DNA of 64,000 bases from Cenarchaeum sp. Lineage in GTDB: Archaea > Thermoproteota > Nitrososphaeria > Nitrososphaerales > Nitrosopumilaceae. The notes beneath the pieces are model-generated. The model had not been told where the DNA came from and ran no database searches. It saw only the letters and a list, made by a program, of their open reading frames with translations. Position numbers and translations under genes: made by a program. The stretch covers positions 1,856,001 through 1,920,000 of the forward strand of contig CBDESU010000001.1 in NCBI GenBank assembly GCA_965242695.1, written 5' to 3'. Every line of letters begins with the position of its first letter. The first letter of the stretch is position 1. Below, one piece after another: positions 2,124 to 56,233 of this stretch.

Positions 2124-2663
2124 TTGCGCGCCGAGCGGCTCGTCTTTGCCGACCCCAGGTACGCGGCGATGGGCGCGGCCGTCTTTGCCGGCATGGCCGT
2201 TCCCCTGCTCGCATTGTCCGGCTTCGTCTTCTTCGAGCCGCGCCTCGCATGGGTGGTGCACCCCGGCGAGGAGGCAAGGCTGGCCCTCGTGGTCGCCCTG
2301 TCGGCCCTGTCGGCCCTTGTAGTCCCGATGAGCGCGTACAGGGCGCTGTCCCTGGGAGGGCCGGGGCGGCGCGGCGGGGGCTCTGGCGGCAGGGCGGCCG
2401 CGGCCGGCTCTGCCGTCGGGGCGGCGGCCGGCGCGTGCGGGTGCGGTCCCGTCGGCCTTGCCCTCTTCTCGGCGTTCGGCGGGGCCGGCGCATCGCTTGC
2501 CGCCGCCCTGACCAACTACGAGGTCCACATACGCCTCGCGTCGATAGCCGTGCTGTGCGTTGCGTACTGGGCCGCGTCGCGGTCGATCGGCGCCGAGTGC
2601 GGCATCGGGCGGCCGGGCGGCGGCCGGGCGGCGGCGGCCAGAGGCGGCAGTCTACAAAGTTAG
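2124..2663 (+). CDS. Membrane protein with CGC motif, adjacent to DsbA
   Basis: Four hydrophobic segments; abuts the DsbA stop codon. Confidence 0.7.
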   Translation: MRAERLVFADPRYAAMGAAVFAGMAVPLLALSGFVFFEPRLAWVVHPGEEARLALVVALSALSALVVPMSAYRALSLGGPGRRGGGSGGRAAAAGSAVGAAAGACGCGPVGLALFSAFGGAGASLAAALTNYEVHIRLASIAVLCVAYWAASRSIGAECGIGRPGGGRAAAARGGSLQS

Positions 2664-2808
2664 ACCGAGGTGTCATAATCCTTCAACACCCATCCTAATT
2701 AGCCGACGATCGGGCGGTTGGGCGTTGAAGATCTACATCCCGGTCCGACCGAGCCGAAGATCGTCCGATGCGGACGAGGAAGACGCAGAGCAGGACGGCA
2801 GGTAGCCC

Positions 2809-3786
2809 CTAGTGGCTGCGCGGTTGCGGCGCCCCGGGCGCGCCTAGCCGCGCGTACGAGCCGTCCGGAGCCGGCGGCAGGCCCGGGGCGCCCGGCCACA
2901 GCAGGGATGCGAGGATCTCTACGCCGGCGACCACCCGTATGCTAGGCTTGCTAAAGTAGCCGCCGGCGTCGACCGCGTACACGCGGCCGGACCGCGCGGC
3001 CAGCGTGCCGCGCCAGCGCGGGTCGGCGGCAAGTGGCGAGCCCGGTGCCGAGTACTCGGCGGCGGCCCGGTCCGCGCCAAAGCCGCACGGCATGACGACG
3101 GCCACGTCCGGCGCGCTTTCCGCAGCCTCCTTGACAGACATGGGGCGGGAGTGCTCGCCTGCCGAGCTGACCAGATTCACGCCGGCGGCGGCCTCTACCA
3201 TCTCGGGCACCCAGTGGCCTGCCGTGTACGGCGGGTCGATCCACTCTAGCGCCAGGGCGCGCGGCCTCTCCTTTCCGCTGGCGGCGGCCGCGGCGGCCGC
3301 GCGGGCCGCCCCCAGGCGCGACTCGAGCGATGCCCGCAGGCGCCGCCCCTCCCTGCCCCTGCCTAGCAGCGACGCGACCCCCGTTACGCTGTCGAGTATG
3401 CCGCGGATATCGTGCGGGTCGATCGACAGGAGCTCGGCCGAGCCGCCTGCCGCCTCCAAGGCCCTGTGCGCCTGCGCCGCATGCGGGGCGCACGCCTCGC
3501 ACGTGTCCTGGCATATGATCAGGTCCGGGTCGGCCCTGCGCACCGCATCCTCGTCGAGCTCGAACAGGTCGTGGCCGGCGCGGCGCGCGGCGCGCACGGC
3601 GGCATCGATCTCCGCGCCGTTCATGGCCGAAAAGTCTACCGCCGGGGAGATCACGCGCGGCACCGGCGGCAGGCCGGCCGGCAGCTCGCACTCGTGCGTG
3701 ATGCCGCGCAGCGACCCGGCGGCGCCGAGCTCGCAGATGAGATCCGTGGCGCTCGGCAGGAGCGAGACGACGCGCTTGAAGTGCAT
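2809..3786 (-). CDS. Cobalamin/Fe-siderophore ABC substrate-binding protein (BtuF-like)
   Basis: RVVSLLPSATD, ITHEC, QDTCEAC, EWIDPPYTAGHWVPEM, VVMPCGF. Confidence 0.85.
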   Translation of the reverse strand: MHFKRVVSLLPSATDLICELGAAGSLRGITHECELPAGLPPVPRVISPAVDFSAMNGAEIDAAVRAARRAGHDLFELDEDAVRRADPDLIICQDTCEACAPHAAQAHRALEAAGGSAELLSIDPHDIRGILDSVTGVASLLGRGREGRRLRASLESRLGAARAAAAAAASGKERPRALALEWIDPPYTAGHWVPEMVEAAAGVNLVSSAGEHSRPMSVKEAAESAPDVAVVMPCGFGADRAAAEYSAPGSPLAADPRWRGTLAARSGRVYAVDAGGYFSKPSIRVVAGVEILASLLWPGAPGLPPAPDGSYARLGAPGAPQPRSH

Positions 3787-3840
3787 GCCGCGGGGCCGGC
3801 GCGCGCAGAAATAAGCGTGCCGGGCCCCGCAGTCGGCGCG

Positions 3841-6800
3841 CTACCCGTCCCTGTTCTCGCCGGTGCGGTACGAGACGAGCGTCCCGAGCTGGTGCGCTAT
3901 CCTGGCCCGCTGCGGCACCGTAAATCCGAGGATGCCCAGCACCTCCCCATCCAGCCGCTCCCTGTCAAGGTCGCCGCAGTAGGCATTCCATGCGGCGCCG
4001 AGCCTGCCTACGTCGCGGGAGTCCATCCTGCCAAGGTCCGGCACCGGCGCCTCCGCCAGGTCGGCGATCAGCACCTGCAGGGCCCCGCCGCCTGCCACGT
4101 GCCCGCTCTTCTCCAAGTGCAGCGCAAACCAAGAGGATGCAAGGTACGCGAGGAGCGCGTCGGTGTGCTCGGGCCGGCTCGGCGTAAAGCCCGCAAAGTT
4201 GTCCCTCGCGTAGAAGCGGCCGTTGTTCCTGTACGCCTTGAGGCGCCTGTCGATGAAGCGGCCTAGGAAGACGGCCGGCGGGCCGTCCCGCAGGCCGAGC
4301 GAGTACCACAGGTCCCTCCCCCTGAGCGATGCAAGATCGGCAATGCCCCTCTCCTTGCGCGAGGATCCCTTCTTCGGCACGACGGCGGCCGCCTCGGCAT
4401 CCTCGATGTACCGCAGGACTCCGGCGCCGCCGACGGCCCTTGCGAGGCGGCCCTTTGGAAGATCGACGCTCAGTAGGTGCTCGCTCGCCCTCTGGCCCCC
4501 GAGGCAGCCGTCCGCAATGCCGTCGGACAGCACCGGCCGCCTGAACCGGGCCGGGATCGAGTACTCTCGAACAGCCTCGCGCGTGAGTACAAAGAACTTG
4601 TTGCGACCTGTCTTGATCCCGCTCTCTAGCTTACCGACCTTTCTCAACGGTACGGTCGGGACGCGTATATGCGAAGGGGGGGGGGGGCGCAAAGTGAGCA
4701 AACCAGTTGCCCGGCACGGTCGTCCTCTGGAGCTTCCTAGCCACCATATGCTGCGTCCAGTCGTCAAATGCGCGGATCCCTGGGATCGCCGCAAGGAGTA
4801 TCTGGTGGCCATCGCAGGACCTCGCTTTGGTGAGGAGCGTGACCACCGTCTTGATGTCGGCGTCGTCAAAGACGTTGAAGAGGGGACGCAACAGGGCGTC
4901 GATTCTACAGTTGTCAAGCATGGTGCGCTGCAGCTGCAACCCATAGTCATGATTGAGCCACCCGTCGCTTGCGATAAATCCCAGGCGGCCACCATTCGCT
5001 AGGCTTGCAAGCGAATGGTAGTAGAAGTAGCTGCTCAGGTCGCTTTTACGTGGTATCTCAAAGTCCGATGCAATCTCTAGCACCGAGCCACCTGGAAGCG
5101 CCAGCGAATTCTTGTCTGCAAGGCCTTCCTGCCGCACGTATGGTGGGTTTCCAATTATAATGTCGAATCCCTGTGCCGCCTGGAACGTGTACGGGAACAA
5201 TGAGGGCCATCCACCATCGGGGATGTCTTTGACGCTGTCCCGCACAACTATGTTCCGAGACAAGTCGGGCAGGCGCTCGAACAGTGACGCCGTCATCAGG
5301 CACAGCGACAGGCGCGTTATCTCAACCGACTGAGGGTTCACGTCTATTCCGTACAGGTTGTTGCGCACTATCTCGAGGGGGGAGGCGTCCGCAATGTCCG
5401 ATTCTAACGTGCCGCTTGCTAGCCCTCCGTGGGCGTTCCTGTGTGCTCGGATTTCTCTGTATATGTCAAGCAGGGTAGTAGCCGCTTCGATCAGAAATGC
5501 TCCCGATCCACACGCAGGATCAAGTATCCGGATGTTGCGCAGCCGCTCCTCAAGGCTTGCAATGTTATCTGCATACTCTGCCACAAGGGAGGCAGGATCC
5601 GCCGCGCTGCCCAACTTCGATAGCCATGGTATAATCGTGCTACGGCATATGTGACGCGTCACGTATGCAGGGGTGTAGAACACCCCCTCACGCTTACGCC
5701 GCGACGAGCCGATGCCAAGTAGGTGCTCGATTTCATGTATGGACTGTTCAAATATGTGGCCAAGTATAGTGACGCGTATCTGGCTCTTGAAGTCATATGA
5801 GGACATTGCGAGTAAGTTTTTGATGATTGGGTTGAGATCGTCGTGCCGCCGGACCGCTGCCTCTATCTTCACCTTGAACTCCCACGAACGACGCCGCTTT
5901 TCAGAGTTAAATTCGTCGAAGAATCCGGGAGGGCGCAGGTCCATTATCCGGGCTCCCCGGGGGAGTGGTTCTACAAATAGACCTCCATTGAACCCGAATA
6001 TTTGGGGCGAGCGTGATCCCTTGTCAAATCCTGGAAACAGTTCATCTGTCAGGTATGACCACACCCGTTTTGAACGGTCGCCTAGTCGCCCGTTCAGCAC
6101 GTCGATCACTCCGTCTGCAAACATATCCGAGTCGCGTACCAAGCCCGAATCTTGGGCGAAGAATATAAAGATAAGCCTGTTGAGCAGCGTCTGTGCTGCC
6201 GCGACGGCGGCACCTCGTTTCACTCCAGACGTTTCGAACTCCCGGATCAACATAAGGCGTGTCTTTCCATACAGATCGTAAAACTCGTCCGTGAGTGCCT
6301 TGTCTTCGTTTATCGACTTTGTGTGAGCACGCTCGACAAAGCCGGATCCAATGTTCGCCTTCCCGAACACGCCTATGAACTCTCGCAGTTTTTTAGGGTT
6401 GTTCCTTACACTCTCAAAGTCGAACTTATAATACTTTGAATAACCATGTTTTTTAGTTATTAAAATAAATTTGCGGTAGTTAGTACATATGCCGTATTCA
6501 AGGTCGATCTTTCCCATGTAGTCCCAAGCCTGCTTGATGGGGGTCGAATGTTCTCCTTCCTTGTGGTGTTGCCGGGCGAAAAGATCGCGCGTCTGTGTGC
6601 CTTTTACTTCAAAACATCCGAGCGGGCGGCGTTGTGAATCGTAAAATTGGAACTCGACGTTGTCCGATTCATATTTGATGTCATCCACCTTGTATCCGAG
6701 CAGTCTATCGAGTATGCACGACATGAAGATGGGGTAGTTGGACACCTCCTTTTGTAGACGGTCTTCTTTGAGCAACGTGAGCCACTCGGACGCCGCGTCG

Positions 6801-6874
6801 TGCTGGTCCCTTGTGATCTTCACGTCAGCGCACATGTTCTCGAGTGTCGCCGGTGAGAAGAGATCATCGGACAT
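3841..6874 (-). pseudogene. Type IIG-like restriction-modification enzyme (nuclease-N6 MTase-TRD), frameshifted at a poly-C tract
   Basis: ORF 6874-4631 has the FEVKG nuclease motif, GVFYTP, ILDPACGSGAFL and GNPPY; TRD (GIKTGRNKFF...GGGALQV) continues in +1 frame to 3841; paralogous to 27688-30774. Confidence 0.85.
4676..4687 (-). repeat. C12 homopolymer (G12 on + strand) at the frameshift site
   Basis: gcgaa-G12-cgc; C11 would restore the frame. Confidence 0.9.
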
Positions 6875-7097
6875 ACAAGTCACCACGCCGTGGTGCCATA
6901 GATGGCCAAGGAAAGCCGCTGCCACATCCACCGCGCAACCCTCCACGGTGCAGGGGCCTGCAAGGCAGGGCGCCTTATCCAGGCGCGGTGGCGTCGGTAG
7001 GTGTACATAGCGATCACGGCGCCGCTGACGAGTAGCCCCGTTAAATCCCTTTCAAGGCAACGCGGCGTTTCTTATACGCCCCGCCCGGGAGGGGGCC

Positions 7098-8270
7098 GTG
7101 GAAGAGTCCGTTCGCATCCGCAGGGACATCGAGGCGAGGTGGAACGAGCACCTGTCCAGGCACGGCGCCCTGTTCTCGTCGGATGCGGTGAGCGGTACGA
7201 CCCCGCCGACCGTCTTCGTCGGCTCGCACGGCTACCCCCGCCTGCGCGTGGGCCCCATGGTGCCGCCCGTCCACGGCGACACGTCCATGATGGACAGCCC
7301 GGAGCGGTGGTCCGGCCGCACCCTGGCCGAGATCGTCTCGGACAGGCTTCGGATGGTGCGCGGCGTGCGCACGGTGCGGGCCGACGCGCCGGCGGACCGC
7401 TACGTCGAGGACCTGCAGGGGCTGGCCATGTCCGGCGGGCCGGCAGACTCTGACCTGCGGCTCGACGCGCCGGCGGCCCCGGTGGCCCTTGCCGACGGGT
7501 ACTCGGCGCCGTTCGGCCCCGTCGGCAGCGTCAAGAGCGCGTCGTACTCGGGGCTGTCGGCCCCGCCGAGGGCCGTCGAGCGGGCGTACTACGACACCGA
7601 CAGGGGCGCCGCCGGCGCCGTCATGGACCTGTACGAGGCGGGCATCGAGGTGTCTAGGATACACCGGCTCCTGTCCATCGGCATGCTCGGCCGGAAGAAG
7701 AGGAGGAGGCTCGTGCCGACCCGCTGGAGCATTGCGGCGACCGACTCTGCCATATCCGAGGCGCTGTCGCGGCGCATACTGGACTATCCGCTGATCGACT
7801 CGCATATGGTGTTCCACCACGAGCACCTGGGCAACCTCTTCTCGGTCGTGCTGTTCCCGAGCCGGTGGATGTTCGAGATGATCGAGGCGTGGTACGCCGC
7901 CGACGGGACGCCGGGGTTCGGGGCGGACCGCGAGGGTGCGCGCGGCATGGGCCACAGGCAGCCGGCCATTGCGGGGGCGTACTTTGCCGGCAGGCTCGCC
8001 GTCGCCGAGCACCTAGAGCGCATCCAGGCGCAGGCCGGCGCGCTAGTCCTGCGCGAGATAAGGCCCGAGTACGCGGTGCCCGTGGGCGTGTGGCAGGTGA
8101 GGGAGGGCGTGCGGGCCGCGATGGCCGGAGGGGGCGCGGCTGCGCCCTCCCTCGGCGAGGCCGTCGGGGCGGCGTGCTCCCCGATGAGCATCTCGAAGGG
8201 CGAGTGGCTCGCGCACGGGCAGGTGATGCAGATGGCCCGTCAGCGGACGCTTGCCGACTTTTTCGGCTAG
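7098..8270 (+). CDS. nreA: Nre family DNA repair protein
   Basis: PPTVFVGSHGYP, RRLVPTRWSI, LREIRPEYAVPVGVWQVRE, C-terminal PIP box QRTLADFF. Confidence 0.9.
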   Translation: MEESVRIRRDIEARWNEHLSRHGALFSSDAVSGTTPPTVFVGSHGYPRLRVGPMVPPVHGDTSMMDSPERWSGRTLAEIVSDRLRMVRGVRTVRADAPADRYVEDLQGLAMSGGPADSDLRLDAPAAPVALADGYSAPFGPVGSVKSASYSGLSAPPRAVERAYYDTDRGAAGAVMDLYEAGIEVSRIHRLLSIGMLGRKKRRRLVPTRWSIAATDSAISEALSRRILDYPLIDSHMVFHHEHLGNLFSVVLFPSRWMFEMIEAWYAADGTPGFGADREGARGMGHRQPAIAGAYFAGRLAVAEHLERIQAQAGALVLREIRPEYAVPVGVWQVREGVRAAMAGGGAAAPSLGEAVGAACSPMSISKGEWLAHGQVMQMARQRTLADFFG

Positions 8271-8404
8271 GCGGCAGAGGCGCGGCGGCCGGGCGCCCCG
8301 CCGCCGCAACCGGCAGTCCCGCCGGCAGGGGAAGGCGGCGGCCGCCGGCAAGTCCAGCCCCGCGCATCCCCGTTTGCATCCCGCTGTCGCGGCGCTCTCC
8401 GCAT

Positions 8405-8974
8405 CTACAGAATGACAAAGTTGAGGGATGCAAAGTCTGGATCGCTGGCCAAGGCGCTAAACTGCCGGTCCCGGGTGCAAAAATTTTTCACTCTGTAGTC
8501 CCGAGCCGCAAGCGCGTGCATCATGTCGAGGATGCCAAGGCTCCTGTAGATGATCCCCATTTTGCCGTGCGGCTCGAAGCGGCCCCCGTGCCTGATCAGC
8601 ATGCGCAGGGCCAGGGTTGCGTACTGTCCTGCATTATTCGAAGGGTTGCGAATTCGAACTTTGCCCATGTCAGACAAGAGCGAGAGCCGACGTAGAAAGA
8701 GTGCCACAGCCTTCTCCGCCACTGCCCATGCCGCCTGTAGGTCCGGCGCATTGCTGCCGCACACCCTAGCCAGATCTCTCGCCGTTTCGCGCCTAGTCAC
8801 TTGGATTACTTCGCTGATGACAAAATCGGACACGTCGACCGTCCTTTTTCCGTCATGCAGGTCGTCGAACAGGGGGCGGCAGGCATCGTAGTGCGGATCC
8901 TTCCTCCCCAGCGAGAATGCGGTCCACACATTGGAGTCCCAGTAGTCGTCGCTACGACCCTCTTCCGCGCACAG
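8405..8974 (-). CDS. PIN-domain (VapC-like) ribonuclease toxin
   Basis: YWDSNVW, VISEV, LGILDMMHALAA, FCTRDRQF; probable CTG start at 8974 (first canonical start GTG 8929 would lose the first Asp). Confidence 0.75.
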   Translation of the reverse strand: MCAEEGRSDDYWDSNVWTAFSLGRKDPHYDACRPLFDDLHDGKRTVDVSDFVISEVIQVTRRETARDLARVCGSNAPDLQAAWAVAEKAVALFLRRLSLLSDMGKVRIRNPSNNAGQYATLALRMLIRHGGRFEPHGKMGIIYRSLGILDMMHALAARDYRVKNFCTRDRQFSALASDPDFASLNFVIL

Positions 8975-27687: not shown

Positions 27688-30600
27688 TTAGGTGCCGCCG
27701 CCCGCACCCTGTTTTGACGCGCGCATGCGCCTCTCTGTGAGGCGGCCGAGTTCGGCCCTGACAGCTCCCATCTGCCGCGCCATGCCTAGCGCCGCAAAGA
27801 CGGCTCTGTCGAGCCTTTTTCGATCCAACGTATCGCAGTATTCCGACCACGCGCCCTCCATCTTTTGCATCGCCTTCTGTGGAAGCTTGTCAAAGTCGGG
27901 CACCCGAGTCTTTGCCAGCACGTGGTTGTCTATGCGCAGGGCACCCCCGCCGAGGGGCGCAGCATTTTTTTCCATGTCTAGGGCAAAGAGTGAGGATGTA
28001 AAGTAGGCAAGGAATCCGTTCGTATGCGTTTTGACATCAGGAGTAAAATGGAGGTAAGTGTCAAGGGCTAGGTACGATCCACGCCCTTGTCCGCCCGCTC
28101 CATTCTCATACACCCTGATCGTTCGGTCGTTGATTCTGCTTATGAAGATCGGGGGCGGGGGAGGGGCCGGCAGAGAGTACCACGGATTTCTGTTTGCAAT
28201 AGTCGGCAGTTTGGGCAACAGGACACGGGTAGAACGTCCCCTCTTTTTTGGCAGAACTGTCATCCCTTCTCCGCGCTCAATATACTTTTTTACAAGGCGT
28301 CCGTGCGTAGTTTTTGCTAGCACACCTTTGCTATCCTGGACGACAAGGATGTATCGTACGGCATGCCTCACCTCAAGGCGTGGCAGCTCGCCGCCCGTCA
28401 CTACCGGTCGCAAATAGTCCGAATGTATCTTGTGATCTCTAGCGGCGTCTCGCGTCATGACAAAAAAGTCGTTACAGCCAGTCCCTATTCCACGCTTCAA
28501 GTGCCCTGTTGCATCAAGGCGTGTTGTGGGAAAAGGGGGGGGGGCGGTGGTCGGCCCATCAAAATATAGAGACCAGTCCTTCCCTACAAGGTTTGTCCCG
28601 GAGACGCGGGCGGCAATATCCAAGGATGGCGCCGCAAAATCCAAGTCGGATCCAACGTTGGCAAACAGGATGTCCCTATTTTCATCAGGAGATGTTCTCA
28701 TGAGTAATACTATTACGGTGGTTATGAGGGCATCGGAGAACACCTTGAATCTCGGAGATACCAATTCTTCTATTTGAGAATTGGAAAGAAGCATCTGCCT
28801 CAATGGTTCGCCGTATTTGGCGCGGAGCCAATTGTCGCTGGAGATAAACCCGAGCAGCCCTCCCTTGCACAAACGTCCCAGCGAGTGGTAGTAGAAATAT
28901 GTGCTCAGGTCGGCTGTTTTTGGAATGGCAAAGTCGCCCGGAAGTGTAAGCGGCATCATGTCCGGCAGTGTGGCCATCGCACGTTTAGTCGGGCCAGTTA
29001 GCAACTCCTGGCGCACGAACGGCGGATTGCCAATGATGACTGAAAACCCCGGGTTTTCACCTGCGAATACTGTAGGAAATGTCCGCTCCCAGTCTAGCCC
29101 ACCTTGATCAGTGTCCACCACAACGCTGTTGCCAACCACAATGTTGTTTGACAAGTCAGGAAGTTTTTCGCCATCGGCCGCTGTCAAGAGAAACAGGGAG
29201 AGGCGCGCAATGTCGACTGACTGAGGGTTTATGTCTATTCCGTATATACAGTTGCGAACAATCTCAGAAATACGCCCTGCATCTATAGACTGATCGAGGC
29301 CGTTGTCTTTTTCGTCGCCATTGTATTTATGGCGTACAATTTCTTCGTGGATCTTGATCAGTGTCCTAGCCGCACGTATCAGAAATGCACCCGACCCGCA
29401 TGCAGGATCAAGTATTCTTATGCGGTTCATGCGGTCATGAAGTCCATCAAGGTCACCGTTATACTCTTTTACAAGTCCAGCAGGATCCAGTGCATTCCCG
29501 CTCGGTGAAAGATATCTTATGATCGTGCGACTGCAAATGTACTCGGTCACATACTCTGGTGTGTAGAATATGCCCTCCCGCTTACGCGTCACGGCACTTC
29601 CATCTAGCAAAATATCCAGATCTGTTACTGAATTTTCGAATATATGGCCCAGTATATCGACACGTATTTGACTTTGAAAGTCGTACGAGGATATCTTTAG
29701 GAGATTGCCAATCACAGGGTTCAGGTTATTCACGCTACGCACCGCCTCTGCGATACGTGGTTTATACTCCCAAGAGTCGGCACCGTGACGGCTAGGATCT
29801 GGGCCCAGTTCGTCAAAAAATTCTTTTTTTCTTTTGTCGGGGAAGAATGCGAGCTTTTGTAATGACTTATCAAAGAGGCCACCGTTGAACGCAGTTATGT
29901 AAGGATCTGCTTGCCCAGTCTCGAATGCGGTGAACAGCTCTTCGACAATGTAGTTCCACACGCGTCGCGTGTTGGTCTTGACGTTGCCTTTTAGTATGCC
30001 CACAACGTCGTCGTCAAACATTCCGTCTTTCACCAAATTTGCATCTTCTGCGAAGAATACAAACATAAGGCGGTTAAGAAAAGTCTGCGCTGTAGAAACT
30101 GCATCGTTGTTTACAAGTCCCTTGTCCTTGAATTCATGTATAAGCATTAAGCGCGTCCTACTGTACAACTTGTAAAACTCGTCGGTGAGGCCCCGATCAG
30201 CGTCGGCGGACCTAGACTGTGCGACATATGGAAAGCCAGCTGCTAGTGATTGTATAGAGAATATCCCCAAAAATTCACGCAGTGCCTCAGAATTGTGCCG
30301 GATGGATTGGAAGTCAAAAATGTGATATTTTGTTAGTGCAAATTTTTTGGTAATCAGTACAAAATCCCTGTAGTTGGTGCATATGCCATATTCGGCGTTT
30401 GTACTCCCCATGTAATTCCATGTCTGCTTGACGGGAGTCTCATGTTCTTTTTTTTCTTTGTGCTGCGGCGTAAAGAGGTTTTTTGTAGACGTGCCTTTTA
30501 CCTCGATGCAGGCCACCGTCTTGCCCTTTTCAGCATAGGTAAAATCAACAAAATTCTCTTCGTGCTTTATCTGATCCTCATTATAACCAAGCAAGTCTAC

Positions 30601-34788: not shown

Positions 34789-35133
34789 CCACGCCGCATC
34801 TAGTCGTGGTCACCAACGACATGTAGGTGTGACACTCATCGGTGTCATACCAAGAAAAGAAGCTATTCGACCCGTGTGGGACAGTACAAACTGCCGGGTT
34901 GGCCAAAACCAACCAGCTACGACAAATCATCATATCCAACGCTCCACCATCATTCATTACAAAATAAATAATATAAGAAATTTGGAGTTTGTAGGACCCG
35001 AGCTAGGTGTTCAAATAGACAAAATTCTGTTAACTTCAATAGTGTCACAACGTAAAAATCATAATACAGTGTTGGTTATAGCACAATGTATACTTTACCG
35101 TGTTATAAACTCCAAGAAAAAAGGTGGCATGCT

Positions 35134-37908
35134 TTGACTGTAAGTGAATACGAAGGCAATTTGAACGGTAAGCTCTGTAGTTTATTAAAAAATTCAAATT
35201 TAAAAGCGGGAAAGGAAGTCAAGCGAGGAAGTGGACGTGTTGATATACTAGTTCTTTTTGAGGGGTACGATGTTGCGATAGAGTGCGAAAAAGATGGACC
35301 TAATAAAAAAACAAGTGCAATCAAAGATGCAATGTCGAGACTAGAACCAGGTCATGTTAATATCGCGTTTGCGGTAGTTTATCCGCCCGATTGCACAGAA
35401 GAGACGCTCGATCTAGACACGGTGCTAAAAGTCGTAGTGCTTGATCGAGATCATGTGGGTACCCTGCGGGGTCAAAAGTCTCTTAACGAGTACATAGGTC
35501 CAACTAAAGAAAAGCCAATAATTTGGATGGAGCGTTCGGTTAAAGATGTCATAGAGATGATACGATCTACGCATCGTGACCTTGGGAATCCAGACAGGAT
35601 TGTCAAAGATCTAAATTATACCTTAGACACTGCAACAAGCTATTTAACAGAAAACGAGTGTAGGCTATTGGGCGAATCGTTGAATCTTACAATGAAAAAG
35701 AAAGGGGGGTGGACACCTGCTGCAAAGCGAGCATTATTAGTAATAGCATCTGCGGCAATGTTTCATGCAAGACTAGATCCACATCTAGATACAATGAAAC
35801 CAATCGTAGATGCGAGAACGGGGACAAAGTTCAAAGGGAATTGGCCCCCTGCCTCCATACAAGAGTGCTATGAAGATGACAATACGCCGGCGCGTTTGTT
35901 AGACTCCTGGCAGTTGATTTTGGCTGTAGACTACAAACCGATATTCGAGGCGGGTCGTCATGTGTTAAAGTCGAATAACAGTACAAAATTTACACAAGCA
36001 GTGAAAATAACTATCAATTGGGCAAGATATGCAGTGGGACAACTCGGTGGACTCCGCCACGATATACTAGGACGCATATTTCACGCAATGTTAGAAGATG
36101 CAAAGTACGACGGATCGTTTTATACATCAGTCCCGTCAGCTATAGTTCTTGCAGGATTGGCATTACGTAATAAACAAGACATTCCGATGAAACTATCATC
36201 AATGAAAATAATAGATCCAGCCTGCGGAACCGGAACGTTACTTATGGCAGCGGCAGAAAGAATACGCGATATTTTAGGTGACAAATACAGTTCTAAAACA
36301 ATGATCGAAAAGGTGTTAACAGGAATTGATATTAATGTAACAGCTCTCCACATGGCGGCCACAACGCTAGGATTGATGTCACCAACGACACAGTTCAAAA
36401 ACATGAATGTGCGTATGGCGCCATTTGGACAACTAAGCGACACAGCAGTCGCCACGGGATCACTAGAGATGTATTCTCCAGAAGGGTTGTTGCCAAGTCA
36501 TGGTTTTTTAGTTCAGGATATTATGGATAGAGATCAATCGCTCCATATAGAAACGGGTCAAAAAGATGATTTTCAAATATACCATAACAGTGCAAATCTC
36601 GTAATAATGAATCCACCATTTACAAGAAGCGACATACGACACGACCAACTCGGCAAGGTTGTTGAAAAATTAGTAAAAAGTAGAGAAAAGTTAATATATA
36701 GAGGCGCACCGTTTAATCCGAGTCAAACATCTAGCGGACAAATGTTTTTGATGCTGGCAGAGAGGCTTGCTAATAAAAACAACAGTGTGGTAGCGTTAGT
36801 ACTTCCACTGACAGCATCGATGAATCCTACCACTCAAGAATTAAGGGCATTTCTTGCACAAAAATTTCACATTGAGACCATTGTGGTTTCTGATGATCCC
36901 GATCGATTTTGGTTTTCAGAGAACACAGATATCGCAGAAATGCTCATCGTGATGAGACGGAGTAGAAAGCCAAAACGGCACACAAATGTCATACATCTGG
37001 CAATAAATCCCAATACAGCAACAGATGCGGCAACATTAGTTAGCGACATATTGTCGAAAAAACCACGAAAGAATATACAAATTATCAAACAGTCGAAGAA
37101 GGCTACGGAGGCGGGAGATTGGTATGGCGTTCAATTTTTCTCACCATACTTGACAGAGTCATTTCTGCGCATCAGAGAAAGTGAACTCTTCAAGGCCACA
37201 CATCTCAAAAACATTGCGAGTGTCTCACCTAGCGGACGCCATCTTAGCATGTATGCCGAATGTAGTGATGTGTCCGGCAAATACGGATGGCGTTCATTAT
37301 ATAATAACAAGACATCCATATTAAAATCTATAGAAGCAAGCCCATATACATACGTTGTTCCAAAAAAAGGAAAACTTAAAAAAGCTGAGGAGTATTGGGC
37401 AAGTAGATCAATCCTCTTAGTACCGATATTTGTACAGCCAAATTTGGCACGTCCAACTGCTGTAATTTCAACAGTTCCTACGATTGGTGTATCGTGGACA
37501 TCTGTCAGACCTTACGAATCATCACGTAAGAAAGAATGGTCGTTAGCAATGGCCATGTATTTTAATTCTACAATTGGCATCGTATCACTTTTGGGGGTAC
37601 GCATTCCAAAAAAACCGCTCTTTCCTAGATTTTCAGTCGAGAACCATGCTAAAATACCAATCCCAATATTGTCACCAAAACAGATTGATGATCTAGCAGA
37701 TGCGTATAAAAATTTTGCGACGAAAAAAATAGGCTTGTGGCGTGAAAGTGACGACCCTGTTCGATCAGGCATTGATGCAGTCGTGAGCTCATCTTTAAAA
37801 ATTAATATTGAATACGTAAACAATATGAGATTTGAGCTGTCACGTGAACCGATGTGTACTGGTGAACGCTACCAGCCAATATTGAATTATAAAGTAATTC
37901 AAAAATGA
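35134..37908 (+). CDS. Type IIG/IIL-like fused restriction endonuclease-N6 adenine methyltransferase
   Basis: GRVDIL...AIECEK PD-(D/E)xK, GSFYTS, IIDPACGTGTLL, MNPPF, C-terminal TRD; strongly AT-rich; TTG 35134 after AGGTGG (ATG 35086 alternative). Confidence 0.85.
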   Translation: MTVSEYEGNLNGKLCSLLKNSNLKAGKEVKRGSGRVDILVLFEGYDVAIECEKDGPNKKTSAIKDAMSRLEPGHVNIAFAVVYPPDCTEETLDLDTVLKVVVLDRDHVGTLRGQKSLNEYIGPTKEKPIIWMERSVKDVIEMIRSTHRDLGNPDRIVKDLNYTLDTATSYLTENECRLLGESLNLTMKKKGGWTPAAKRALLVIASAAMFHARLDPHLDTMKPIVDARTGTKFKGNWPPASIQECYEDDNTPARLLDSWQLILAVDYKPIFEAGRHVLKSNNSTKFTQAVKITINWARYAVGQLGGLRHDILGRIFHAMLEDAKYDGSFYTSVPSAIVLAGLALRNKQDIPMKLSSMKIIDPACGTGTLLMAAAERIRDILGDKYSSKTMIEKVLTGIDINVTALHMAATTLGLMSPTTQFKNMNVRMAPFGQLSDTAVATGSLEMYSPEGLLPSHGFLVQDIMDRDQSLHIETGQKDDFQIYHNSANLVIMNPPFTRSDIRHDQLGKVVEKLVKSREKLIYRGAPFNPSQTSSGQMFLMLAERLANKNNSVVALVLPLTASMNPTTQELRAFLAQKFHIETIVVSDDPDRFWFSENTDIAEMLIVMRRSRKPKRHTNVIHLAINPNTATDAATLVSDILSKKPRKNIQIIKQSKKATEAGDWYGVQFFSPYLTESFLRIRESELFKATHLKNIASVSPSGRHLSMYAECSDVSGKYGWRSLYNNKTSILKSIEASPYTYVVPKKGKLKKAEEYWASRSILLVPIFVQPNLARPTAVISTVPTIGVSWTSVRPYESSRKKEWSLAMAMYFNSTIGIVSLLGVRIPKKPLFPRFSVENHAKIPIPILSPKQIDDLADAYKNFATKKIGLWRESDDPVRSGIDAVVSSSLKINIEYVNNMRFELSREPMCTGERYQPILNYKVIQK

Positions 37909-45352: not shown

Positions 45353-45780
45353 CGGGCGGCGCCGCCCCGTGTGCGGATTTAAGGGTTTGGAAGGGCGCCC
45401 GCCCGCGCAGGGGCCGCCTGTGCGGGCGGCTGGGCTGGCTGGCAGGCAGGCATCCCGGCACGGGGCGCGCACGGGGCATGCCGCCCGTGCAGGGCGGCGC
45501 GGAGCGATCGCCGTGCGGCGCACGCGGGGGCGGCGCATGGGACGGATGGCAGGCAGGCGCCCGGCAGCCTGTTCAACAGTGCCGGCCGCATACCGCGGCG
45601 ATCTCTTCCCCCCCCTCCCCGCGCAGTCCCCTTGCCCGCCGCACCCAGGACCGCTTCCGGCATCGGCGGCCCGCCCTCCGCCCCCCCCCCCTCCCCCCGC
45701 CCCTCCCCACTAGCGGCCGGCGGGCCGCCTGCCGCCGCCGAGGGCGCAACCTAAAAGGCGGGCGCGTGCGGGGGCGGCGC

Positions 45781-49662: not shown

Positions 49663-49862
49663 CAACAACAGGCAACAGCGGTGAAAACGGCTTGGCCAGT
49701 AGCCCCTGCACGCCCCAAATGAAGGCCAGAGGTCGAGCCGCCATCGCCGCCGCTACCCCCCCCCCCCAACGAATAAAGCGCGGCGCCGGCTGCCCGGGCC
49801 ATGGGCAGCAGCAGCGCCGCGCCGGGCGCGCCGCGGTGCGGACGCCGGCGGGGGGCCGGGAA

Positions 49863-55889: not shown

Positions 55890-56233
55890 GGGCGCGCGCC
55901 CCCGGCTTGCCTTAATAGTTTTTGGGCGGGCCGGCGGGCGCAGGCGCCGCGGCCAGGGCCGCGGCCTCCCCCCTACCCCGCCCCGCCCCGCCAGGGGACG
56001 CCGCGGCCCCCCGAGCCGGCCAGGCCGCCTGCAGGTCCCGCCGCGGACCGGCTGTGTCTGCCGCCCCGGCGCAGGGCAGCCCGCCAGGCGCATGCCCGTC
56101 ATTCTCCCTCGCCCTTCCTCCCCCCCCCCGCTCAGCCGGCCTGCAGGTCCGCTGCAGGGCGGGGGCCGCCGGCGGCGGCGAGGGGGGCATGCGGCAGGAA
56201 GGCGCAGCGCGCCCTGCGGGCGGAGGGAGGCCG

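Follow-up and report, generated by a model that had tools for sequence, protein, structure and literature searches.

Whether a restriction-modification gene that a homopolymer tract puts out of frame is broken, miscounted or switched off is the question raised by one locus in a 64,000-nucleotide stretch of the genome of the archaeon Cenarchaeum sp. (contig CBDESU010000001.1, positions 1,856,001 to 1,920,000; hereafter the window, to which positions refer unless a contig is named). The locus is a type IIG gene on the minus strand that is split by twelve consecutive cytosines (C12). That restriction-modification genes vary in phase through changes in repeat length is textbook knowledge for host-adapted bacteria. 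The answer that we favour, and consider moderately probable as a whole, is that the gene encodes a single-chain type IIG enzyme, in which a putative nuclease domain precedes a gamma-class N6-adenine methyltransferase and a target recognition domain (TRD) forms the C-terminus, and that the tract is a slipped-strand ON/OFF switch like that of Campylobacter cj0031, captured in the OFF state. On this reading the switch would be reversible, would act within a population and would affect methylation.

The frame that starts with the ATG at 6874 comprises 747 residues, reads ...NWFAHFA-PPPP-FAYTRPDRTVEKGR across the tract and terminates at the TAA at 4631-4633, its end reading ...NWFAHFAPPPPFAYTRPDRTVEKGR. 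A second frame, SHIRVPTVPLRKVGKLESGIKTGRNKFF..., runs from 4674 to the stop codon at 3841-3843. When the tract is shortened by one base, a stop-to-stop frame of 3207 nt results, which encodes 1010 amino acids counted from the ATG at 6874; the start, MSDDLFSPATL, agrees with the starts of the homologues. The tract lies at about position 2187 of 3033 bp, in a proline-coding linker between the methyltransferase and the TRD. A sister species (G004) has an intact orthologue, and aligned to it neither half shows a further stop or frameshift. The initial annotation had described an out-of-frame gene with C12 at the methyltransferase/TRD junction, a full enzyme of about 1010 amino acids on deletion of one C, halves free of other lesions, and a C10 tract at the equivalent position of a paralogue. 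The reading of the frames, the Eco57I match and the TRD-like predicted fold given below, and the alignment to the G004 orthologue bear out this description, and the paralogue's tract occupies the same alignment column and is in frame.

In the N-terminal part, Pfam profiles detected Eco57I (1.5e-27; 97.2 bits, cut-off 25.3), N6_Mtase (2.2e-16) and MmeI_Mtase (1.3e-14; 54.4 bits), and the PADLOC profile REase_MTase_IIG matched at 6.1e-42; MmeI_hel scored 22.7 bits, under its cut-off of 27. This part contains a gamma-class N6-adenine methyltransferase with the S-adenosylmethionine (SAM) motif I and the motif IV NPPY, as is characteristic of type IIG enzymes. The domain that precedes it is likely a nuclease, a candidate assignment that draws on an alignment (A3), in which residues E69 and E89 do not vary, K91 hardly varies and the motif was assigned by eye, and on a predicted structure. 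The AlphaFold2 (AF2) model of the first 225 residues, with a predicted local distance difference test score (pLDDT) of 89.9, gave weak Foldseek matches only, to DrdV, BpuSI, NucC, Cas4 and HsdR nuclease domains (E 0.06-0.18), and the paralogue resembled HSDR_N_2 at an E-value of 0.0083, below the cut-off. The C-terminal part had no Pfam matches, including TaqI_C. Its AF2 model (pLDDT 87.9) matched the recognition domains of CamA (6.7e-8), M.BseCI, BpuSI (7.1e-7, TMq 0.69), MmeI (2.1e-5), PglX and M.TaqI, so the TRD is recognised by its predicted fold, and it is fused to the methyltransferase only in the C11 allele. Because the N-terminal part matches Eco57I and the model of the C-terminal part matches recognition domains, the tract can be placed in the linker between methyltransferase and TRD.

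We compared the length of the tract in public sequence data. Five sequencing runs contained at least half of the locus's sampled words, and four of them (four samples from two studies) were compared over positions 2500-8500, in every case as assembled contigs, in which minority variants are hidden. The contigs of X1 (depth 93.4, span 2500-4877) and X4 (depth 17.5, span 4618-5404) aligned without a gap and have a tract of 12, whereas one base is left out at the tract in the contigs of X2 (depth 476.7, span 4647-4877) and X5 (depth 7.45, span 3333-5098), giving 11. A second contig of X2 (depth 397.3) stops at the first base of the tract and is uninformative on length. The intact-frame C11 is therefore present in two of the four samples and the C12 of the window in the other two, and both the ON and the OFF allele exist in public samples. 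X1, X2 and X5 are otherwise identical to the window over 2500-8500; among these three the tract is the sole variable site in 6 kb, and thus the fastest-changing one. These results give the locus two features of a contingency gene: a simple repeat within the reading frame that shifts the frame when its length changes, in a gene that is otherwise intact, and, at contig level, length variation on otherwise identical sequence. In the protein database, the only entry at 90% identity or more was the window's own 766-residue form, which means that the intact allele is absent from that database as a protein; the nearest full-length relative is 80% identical. An exact-pattern scan of metagenome contigs with both flanks gave no matches, and a protein-guided scan of the same contigs gave 42 pattern matches and no relatives. 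Five sequencing runs labelled as sponge metagenome contained just 0.11-0.17 of the sampled words, which is no evidence of habitat.

In X4, between 4100 and 7100 of the window, the restriction gene had a depth of 5-68, against 258-400 in the flank to 3977, and the flank carried 25 differences. It seems that the gene of X4 comes from a less abundant strain that matches the window, and that the gene is missing or diverged in the main strain.

The type IIG gene is one of several in its genome that contain such a tract. The genome (G000) consists of two contigs of 3.89 Mb in total with 68% GC, carries an archaeal 16S rRNA gene and an archaeal AmoA, and is 96% complete. A screen for open reading frames (ORFs) that span tracts flagged 25 of 252 tracts, of which 14 were searched by family, two were covered in part (contig 1: 1375793 and 1905756) and the rest lie outside the family search (contig 1: 435023, 849241, 1182041, 1184086 and 1409076; contig 2: 12797, 73572, 1408915 and 1612534). 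At least eight defence genes, including two of type IIG, contain an internal G/C tract of at least nine bases, four of them in frame and four frameshifted (Table 1). Internal tracts are concentrated in defence genes. The methyltransferase-domain repertoire of the genome comprises 22 N6_Mtase and 23 N6_N4_Mtase matches, and 13 of these 45 have a tract inside their frame or no more than 150 nt from it, compared with 6.06 +/- 2.2 when intervals of matching sizes are placed at random. The two type ISP genes have their internal tracts at different positions. Another species of the genus (G002) has a type ISP homologue that is split exactly at a C10 (contig 1, 198029-198038; L122/L128), and in the protein this break coincides with the in-frame tract of one of the two (L005). 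In the PDC-M23B/HamB-like helicase, the PADLOC profile carries on past the break.

Table 1. Features of the type IIG locus in the window, and tract-bearing defence genes elsewhere in the genome (C1, contig 1; C2, contig 2; tract positions in the last column are those of the locus or contig range named there).
Feature	Position	Strand	Remarks
Whole type IIG restriction-modification gene, frameshifted C12 (OFF) allele	3841..6874	-	C11 version is one frame of 1010 amino acids; PADLOC match on the N-terminal part, start agrees with homologues
Homopolymer tract, C12 coding (four CCC codons, PPPP), G12 on the plus strand	4676..4687	-	Length-polymorphic site; one base left out at 4676 in X2 and X5 contigs, none in X1 and X4
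N-terminal frame, 747 amino acids + TAA: putative nuclease, helical spacer, gamma-class N6-adenine methyltransferase	4631..6874	-	Pfam; 48% identity to the paralogue
Candidate PD-(D/E)XK nuclease motif, E69...E74 (D in the paralogue)...E89-V-K91	6602..6670	-	Assigned by eye
Methyltransferase motif I DPACGSGAFL (SAM binding), intact	5492..5521	-	Read from the sequence
Methyltransferase motif IV NPPY (N6-adenine), intact	5138..5149	-	Read from the sequence
TRD, 277 amino acids + stop, out of frame in the C12 allele	3841..4674	-	36% identity to the C-terminus of the paralogue; predicted fold
Intact paralogous type IIG gene, 1028 amino acids	27688..30774	-
C10 tract of the paralogue, in frame (APPPF)	28535..28544	-	G10 on the plus strand; same linker alignment column
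Type ISP gene	C2:1112884		G13; split, 320 + 1273 amino acids; L003 (C2:1108001-1118000), tract 4884-4896
Type ISP gene	C1:632221		11-base tract coding LSGGGAV; in frame; L005 (C1:627001-637000), tract 5221-5231
Type III Mod gene	C1:1952275		22-base tract; in frame; L002 (C1:1948001-1956500), tract 4275-4296
Type II methyltransferase gene	C2:764251		G14; in frame; L004 (C2:760001-768500), tract 4251-4264
N6_N4 methyltransferase gene	C1:292849		G10; frameshifted directly after the SPPY motif; C1:292749-293442, tract 292849-292858
PDC-M23B/HamB-like helicase gene	C1:391906		C9; split, 928 + 242 amino acids, profile position ~860; L007 (C1:387001-396500), tract 4906-4914

Searches of the genome, which is 96% complete, detected neither MutS_V nor MutL_C. 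NucS_C gave one weak match (23.3 bits; contig 2, 763219-763437), which adjoins a methyltransferase gene; the protein is probably a restriction nuclease, and it was not counted as a repair gene.

Under the reading as a switch, a hypermutable C tract in the proline-rich linker ahead of the TRD would set the reading frame. With 11 C's (and also with 8 or 14) the full enzyme of 1010 amino acids would be made, whereas with 12 translation would stop 16 codons past the tract and leave a product without the TRD. Since that product lacks the TRD, the enzyme should lose both restriction and methylation at once, and OFF would then be a safe state. Strand slippage during replication would alter the length of the tract and, as MutS and MutL were not detected, such changes would stay uncorrected, so that ON and OFF cells would coexist in a population. 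A possible benefit would be bet-hedging against viruses and a variable methylome. We infer the slippage mechanism, its reversibility, the joint loss of both activities and the benefit.

The main competing explanation, which we consider unlikely though by no means negligible, is that the tract is a non-adaptive by-product: in a lineage with hundreds of such tracts, without MutS and MutL and strongly prone to generate and expand them, a C-rich proline linker drifted to a pure run, and C12 is a segregating null allele on its way to a pseudogene, with no reversible switching that is selected or matters for function. Selection on the two halves speaks against this. Relative to the G004 orthologue, which is intact, shares 76% DNA identity and reads HFAGPAPRLAVPTVPL at the junction, the ratio of nonsynonymous to synonymous substitution (dN/dS) was 0.089 in the N-terminal part, with 729 codons compared, and 0.26 in the TRD, with 275, and neither half has another lesion. 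These values indicate that both halves are under purifying selection and, since the ratio for the TRD is 0.26, that the out-of-frame TRD has been kept as coding sequence. The intact allele, moreover, is the main one in X2, at a depth of 476.7. Drift also sits poorly with the concentration of internal tracts in defence genes, when native-looking genes have theirs nearly confined to the 5' end, and with the repeated positions: two paralogues have a tract in the same column, and the type ISP pair of two species shares another position.

Two groups of observations weigh against a switch, and the first favours the by-product. The tract is absent from the linkers of the G004 orthologues of both genes (which read GPAPR and MIKAQ); that of the paralogue shares 76% protein identity with it, and 72% over the DNA alignment. 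It is also absent from four more paralogues in the genome, from the G004 copies and from one copy in another genome (G015). Among 80 homologous loci of other archaea and bacteria, none had a G/C run of at least 8 at the junction, and 9 had any run (A/T of at least 9 or G/C of at least 8) anywhere in the locus. As orthologues and homologues lack it, sequence comparison indicates that the tract is young and lineage-specific in both genes and is no family trait. The ancestral linker was already C-rich (GGCCCCGCCCCGCGCC in G004) and could have yielded two tracts at one position without selection; the junction of the paralogue is ACC GCC CCC CCC CCT TTT. The expectation that pure CCC codons would be kept at this linker throughout the family thus failed. 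Of the proposal that the gene is phase-variable, what stands is that both alleles occur in samples and that the genomic context resembles that of contingency genes; the conservation of the CCC codons does not. High gene turnover is further suggested by the 45 methyltransferase-domain matches, some of which contain stop codons, and several database relatives of 731-769 amino acids end near the junction and look decayed.

The number of tracts in the genome points the same way. We found 223 G/C runs of at least 10 bases with a bimodal length histogram; on contig 1, 8-mers and 9-mers are few, and 10- to 13-mers number 10 to 19 each per base. Most of the 223 lie outside genes, and those in dispensable genes could be tolerated mutational debris. 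The codon-usage classifier behind the count of 174 non-coding tracts among the 223 is weak on low-GC foreign genes and called the paralogue non-coding, so that this count is rough only. Among native-looking long frames, 56 of 1034 contain a tract, nearly all at a relative position of 0.00-0.09, that is, at the 5' end. Two congeners of 3.2 and 3.7 Mb gave similar numbers of pattern matches, and two of about 2 Mb gave few.

The second group of observations concerns the contigs, and it bears on the explanation, very improbable in our judgement, that the true tract is uniformly C11 and that C12 is a homopolymer miscall of sequencing or assembly. Long-read data miscount long homopolymers, and the recovery of an uncultured organism as a two-contig genome hints at long reads. 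Library types are not on record, and if the platforms of X1 and X2 differ, platform bias could explain part of the difference. X1 is possibly the source sample of the window and X5 is shallow, so the contrast rests mainly on X1 and X4 against X2; contigs also provide no within-sample length histogram, and heterogeneity inside one population is not visible in them. A systematic miscall, however, should affect the sequencing runs of one study alike, and X1 and X2, which come from the same study, differ, with 12 in X1 as in X4 and 11 at the greatest depth in X2. Half of the eight tract-bearing defence genes are in frame, which indicates that tracts are not generally miscounted into frameshifts. 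The initial annotation had named a uniform C11 as the mark of an assembly error; in the contigs of the four sequencing runs, the length is not uniform. Because contigs of different samples differ at the tract, a uniform assembly error is unlikely, and we did not accept that such an error explains the tract by itself.

In bacterial endosymbionts, slippage during transcription of long homopolymers rescues genes. A C12 allele that is still expressed because RNA polymerase slippage or ribosomal frameshifting restores the frame in a share of the products, so that the enzyme would be reduced and not abolished, would be compatible with a switch and could account for four frameshifted defence genes that are otherwise intact, but the C11 allele found at the DNA level makes such a mechanism unnecessary and we consider it highly unlikely.

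Taken together, the anatomy of the locus, its two alleles, the intact halves, the clustering of internal tracts in defence genes and the absence of detectable MutS and MutL fit slipped-strand phase variation by analogy with cj0031. A wider proposal, which we put forward tentatively and with less than even confidence, is that this genome and its large-genome congeners have a multi-locus contingency system, of a type associated so far with bacterial pathogens and commensals, in which internal tracts would switch at least eight defence genes independently and 5' tracts may also switch dozens of giant surface-repeat proteins. If so, defence, methylome and surface states would combine within one population, with hundreds of tracts kept at 10-13 nt in the absence of MutS and MutL, and the system would be the first of its kind in Archaea.

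The tracts at 5' ends lie at or just upstream of the start, often of very long ORFs, several of which contain NHL or Big_5 repeats; examples are contig 1: 65590-73680, 887995-903618, 1147359-1171601 and 1379959-1401501, and the loci L008, L010 and L012. Such tracts could serve as switches in the promoters or leaders of surface-protein genes. Two large low-GC or unannotated frames without a Pfam or PADLOC match are also split at a tract: 594 + 440 amino acids at a G13 (4157-4169 of L001; contig 1, 864001-872500) and 1630 + 767 amino acids at a C11 (5385-5395 of L006; contig 1, 1198001-1209000).

The polarity of the tracts differs by chromosome half. On contig 1, the ratio of G to C tracts is 64:5 over 0-1.0 Mb and 10:70 over 1.0-2.2 Mb; on contig 2, it is 1:16 over 0-0.4 Mb and 42:6 over 0.8-1.68 Mb. 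The intergenic tracts of the window at 45681-45691 (C11), 49756-49767 (C12) and 56120-56129 (C10) agree with the local polarity, and both type IIG tracts are opposed to it. Replication-linked slippage or selection may cause this polarity. Runs of at least G9 gave 15 pattern matches in the window, compared with 1.52 +/- 1.65 in 100 shuffles, none of which reached 15.

The GC content of the type IIG gene is below that of its surroundings and rises from 44-57% in the N-terminal part to 66-70% in the TRD; in the G004 orthologue the gradient is weaker (56-63% versus 67-70%). A chimeric junction at the tract, suggested by this contrast, was rejected, as the intact G004 orthologue has such a gradient too, which is therefore not tied to the tract. 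Recent gene conversion between the two paralogues of the window was rejected as well, the flanks of the two tracts being unlike. The neighbouring genes are ordinary and include a periplasmic binding protein and an archaeal Nre, and a third N6_Mtase/MmeI_Mtase-like gene (35065-37905, plus strand; 947 amino acids) is without a tract. The database relatives P0049 (ending ...FQPPPLNRPRP), P0074, P0075, P0092 and P0118 have 731-763 amino acids and end at or near the methyltransferase/TRD junction; to judge by their protein sequences, other organisms may have frameshifted alleles too, but these proteins were not used as evidence. P0075 additionally has a G8 peptide run.

The predicted domain order of the gene, putative nuclease, helical spacer, gamma-class methyltransferase and TRD, is that of the structurally solved type IIG/IIL enzymes MmeI, BpuSI and DrdV. 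The protein has no significant sequence match to their chains; the SAM motif accounts for the one phmmer match, BrxX/PglX. In predicted fold, the TRD resembles BpuSI and MmeI, and the match of the putative nuclease domain is weak. We know of no switch tract in MmeI, BpuSI or DrdV. Phenotype switching mediated by insertion sequences in haloarchaea is a different mechanism.

A 2025 review states, in the part available to us, that genomes with many phase-variable loci seem to be confined to pathogens and that archaeal phylogenies are ground to cover (PMC11868660), and a survey that included archaea treats, in the sections at hand, repeat variability in general and not switches (PMC3315296). In the literature found, including the available portions of PMC12707154, PMC11868660, PMC3315296, PMC13076061 and PMC4889913, there was no case of repeat-mediated switching of an archaeal restriction-modification gene. 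If the locus switches, Archaea have come to the same solution, here in an ammonia oxidiser whose methyltransferase repertoire is very large; populations of such archaea would be heterogeneous in methylome and virus resistance, and homopolymer frameshifts in their genomes should not be annotated as pseudogenes or 'corrected'. Public samples already differ at the tract, which makes the claim directly testable.

Among known systems, the phasevarions of Haemophilus, Neisseria, Helicobacter and Streptococcus, in which, according to the excerpts consulted (Atack et al. 2018, PMC5909438; review PMC12707154), type III mod or type I hsd genes vary in phase, rest on a DNA methyltransferase that slippage in a repeat tract toggles, as proposed for this locus, and a tract of 22 nt lies within a type III Mod gene of the present genome. 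Phasevarions are defined by a methylation-controlled regulon, whereas the gene described here is of type IIG, not type III. The closest counterpart is cj0031 of Campylobacter jejuni NCTC11168 (cj0031/cj0032), in which, in the text available from Anjum et al. 2016 (PMC4889913), the Eco57I and TaqI_C domains are separated by a G9/G10 tract, at 2573 of 3732 bp, that most homologues lack. As far as that text describes Cj0031, both are single-chain type IIG enzymes with an Eco57I-type methyltransferase and a G/C homopolymer roughly 70% of the way along the gene, between the methyltransferase and the specificity domain; in both, a change of one base splits the gene into two frames, and the tract is absent from most homologues or alleles. 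Many other G/C tracts occur in both genomes, and canonical mismatch repair was not found in the archaeal one. Unlike cj0031, the gene has an archaeal host, its sense strand carries the poly-C, which encodes prolines, and its TRD is without a Pfam TaqI_C match and is recognised by predicted fold only. Switching, the methylated motif and expression were measured in Campylobacter, by the same account, whereas here the counterpart is two alleles in different samples. The kind of switch proposed is itself already known, and what is notable here is the host domain, Archaea, and the genome-wide pattern of tracts.

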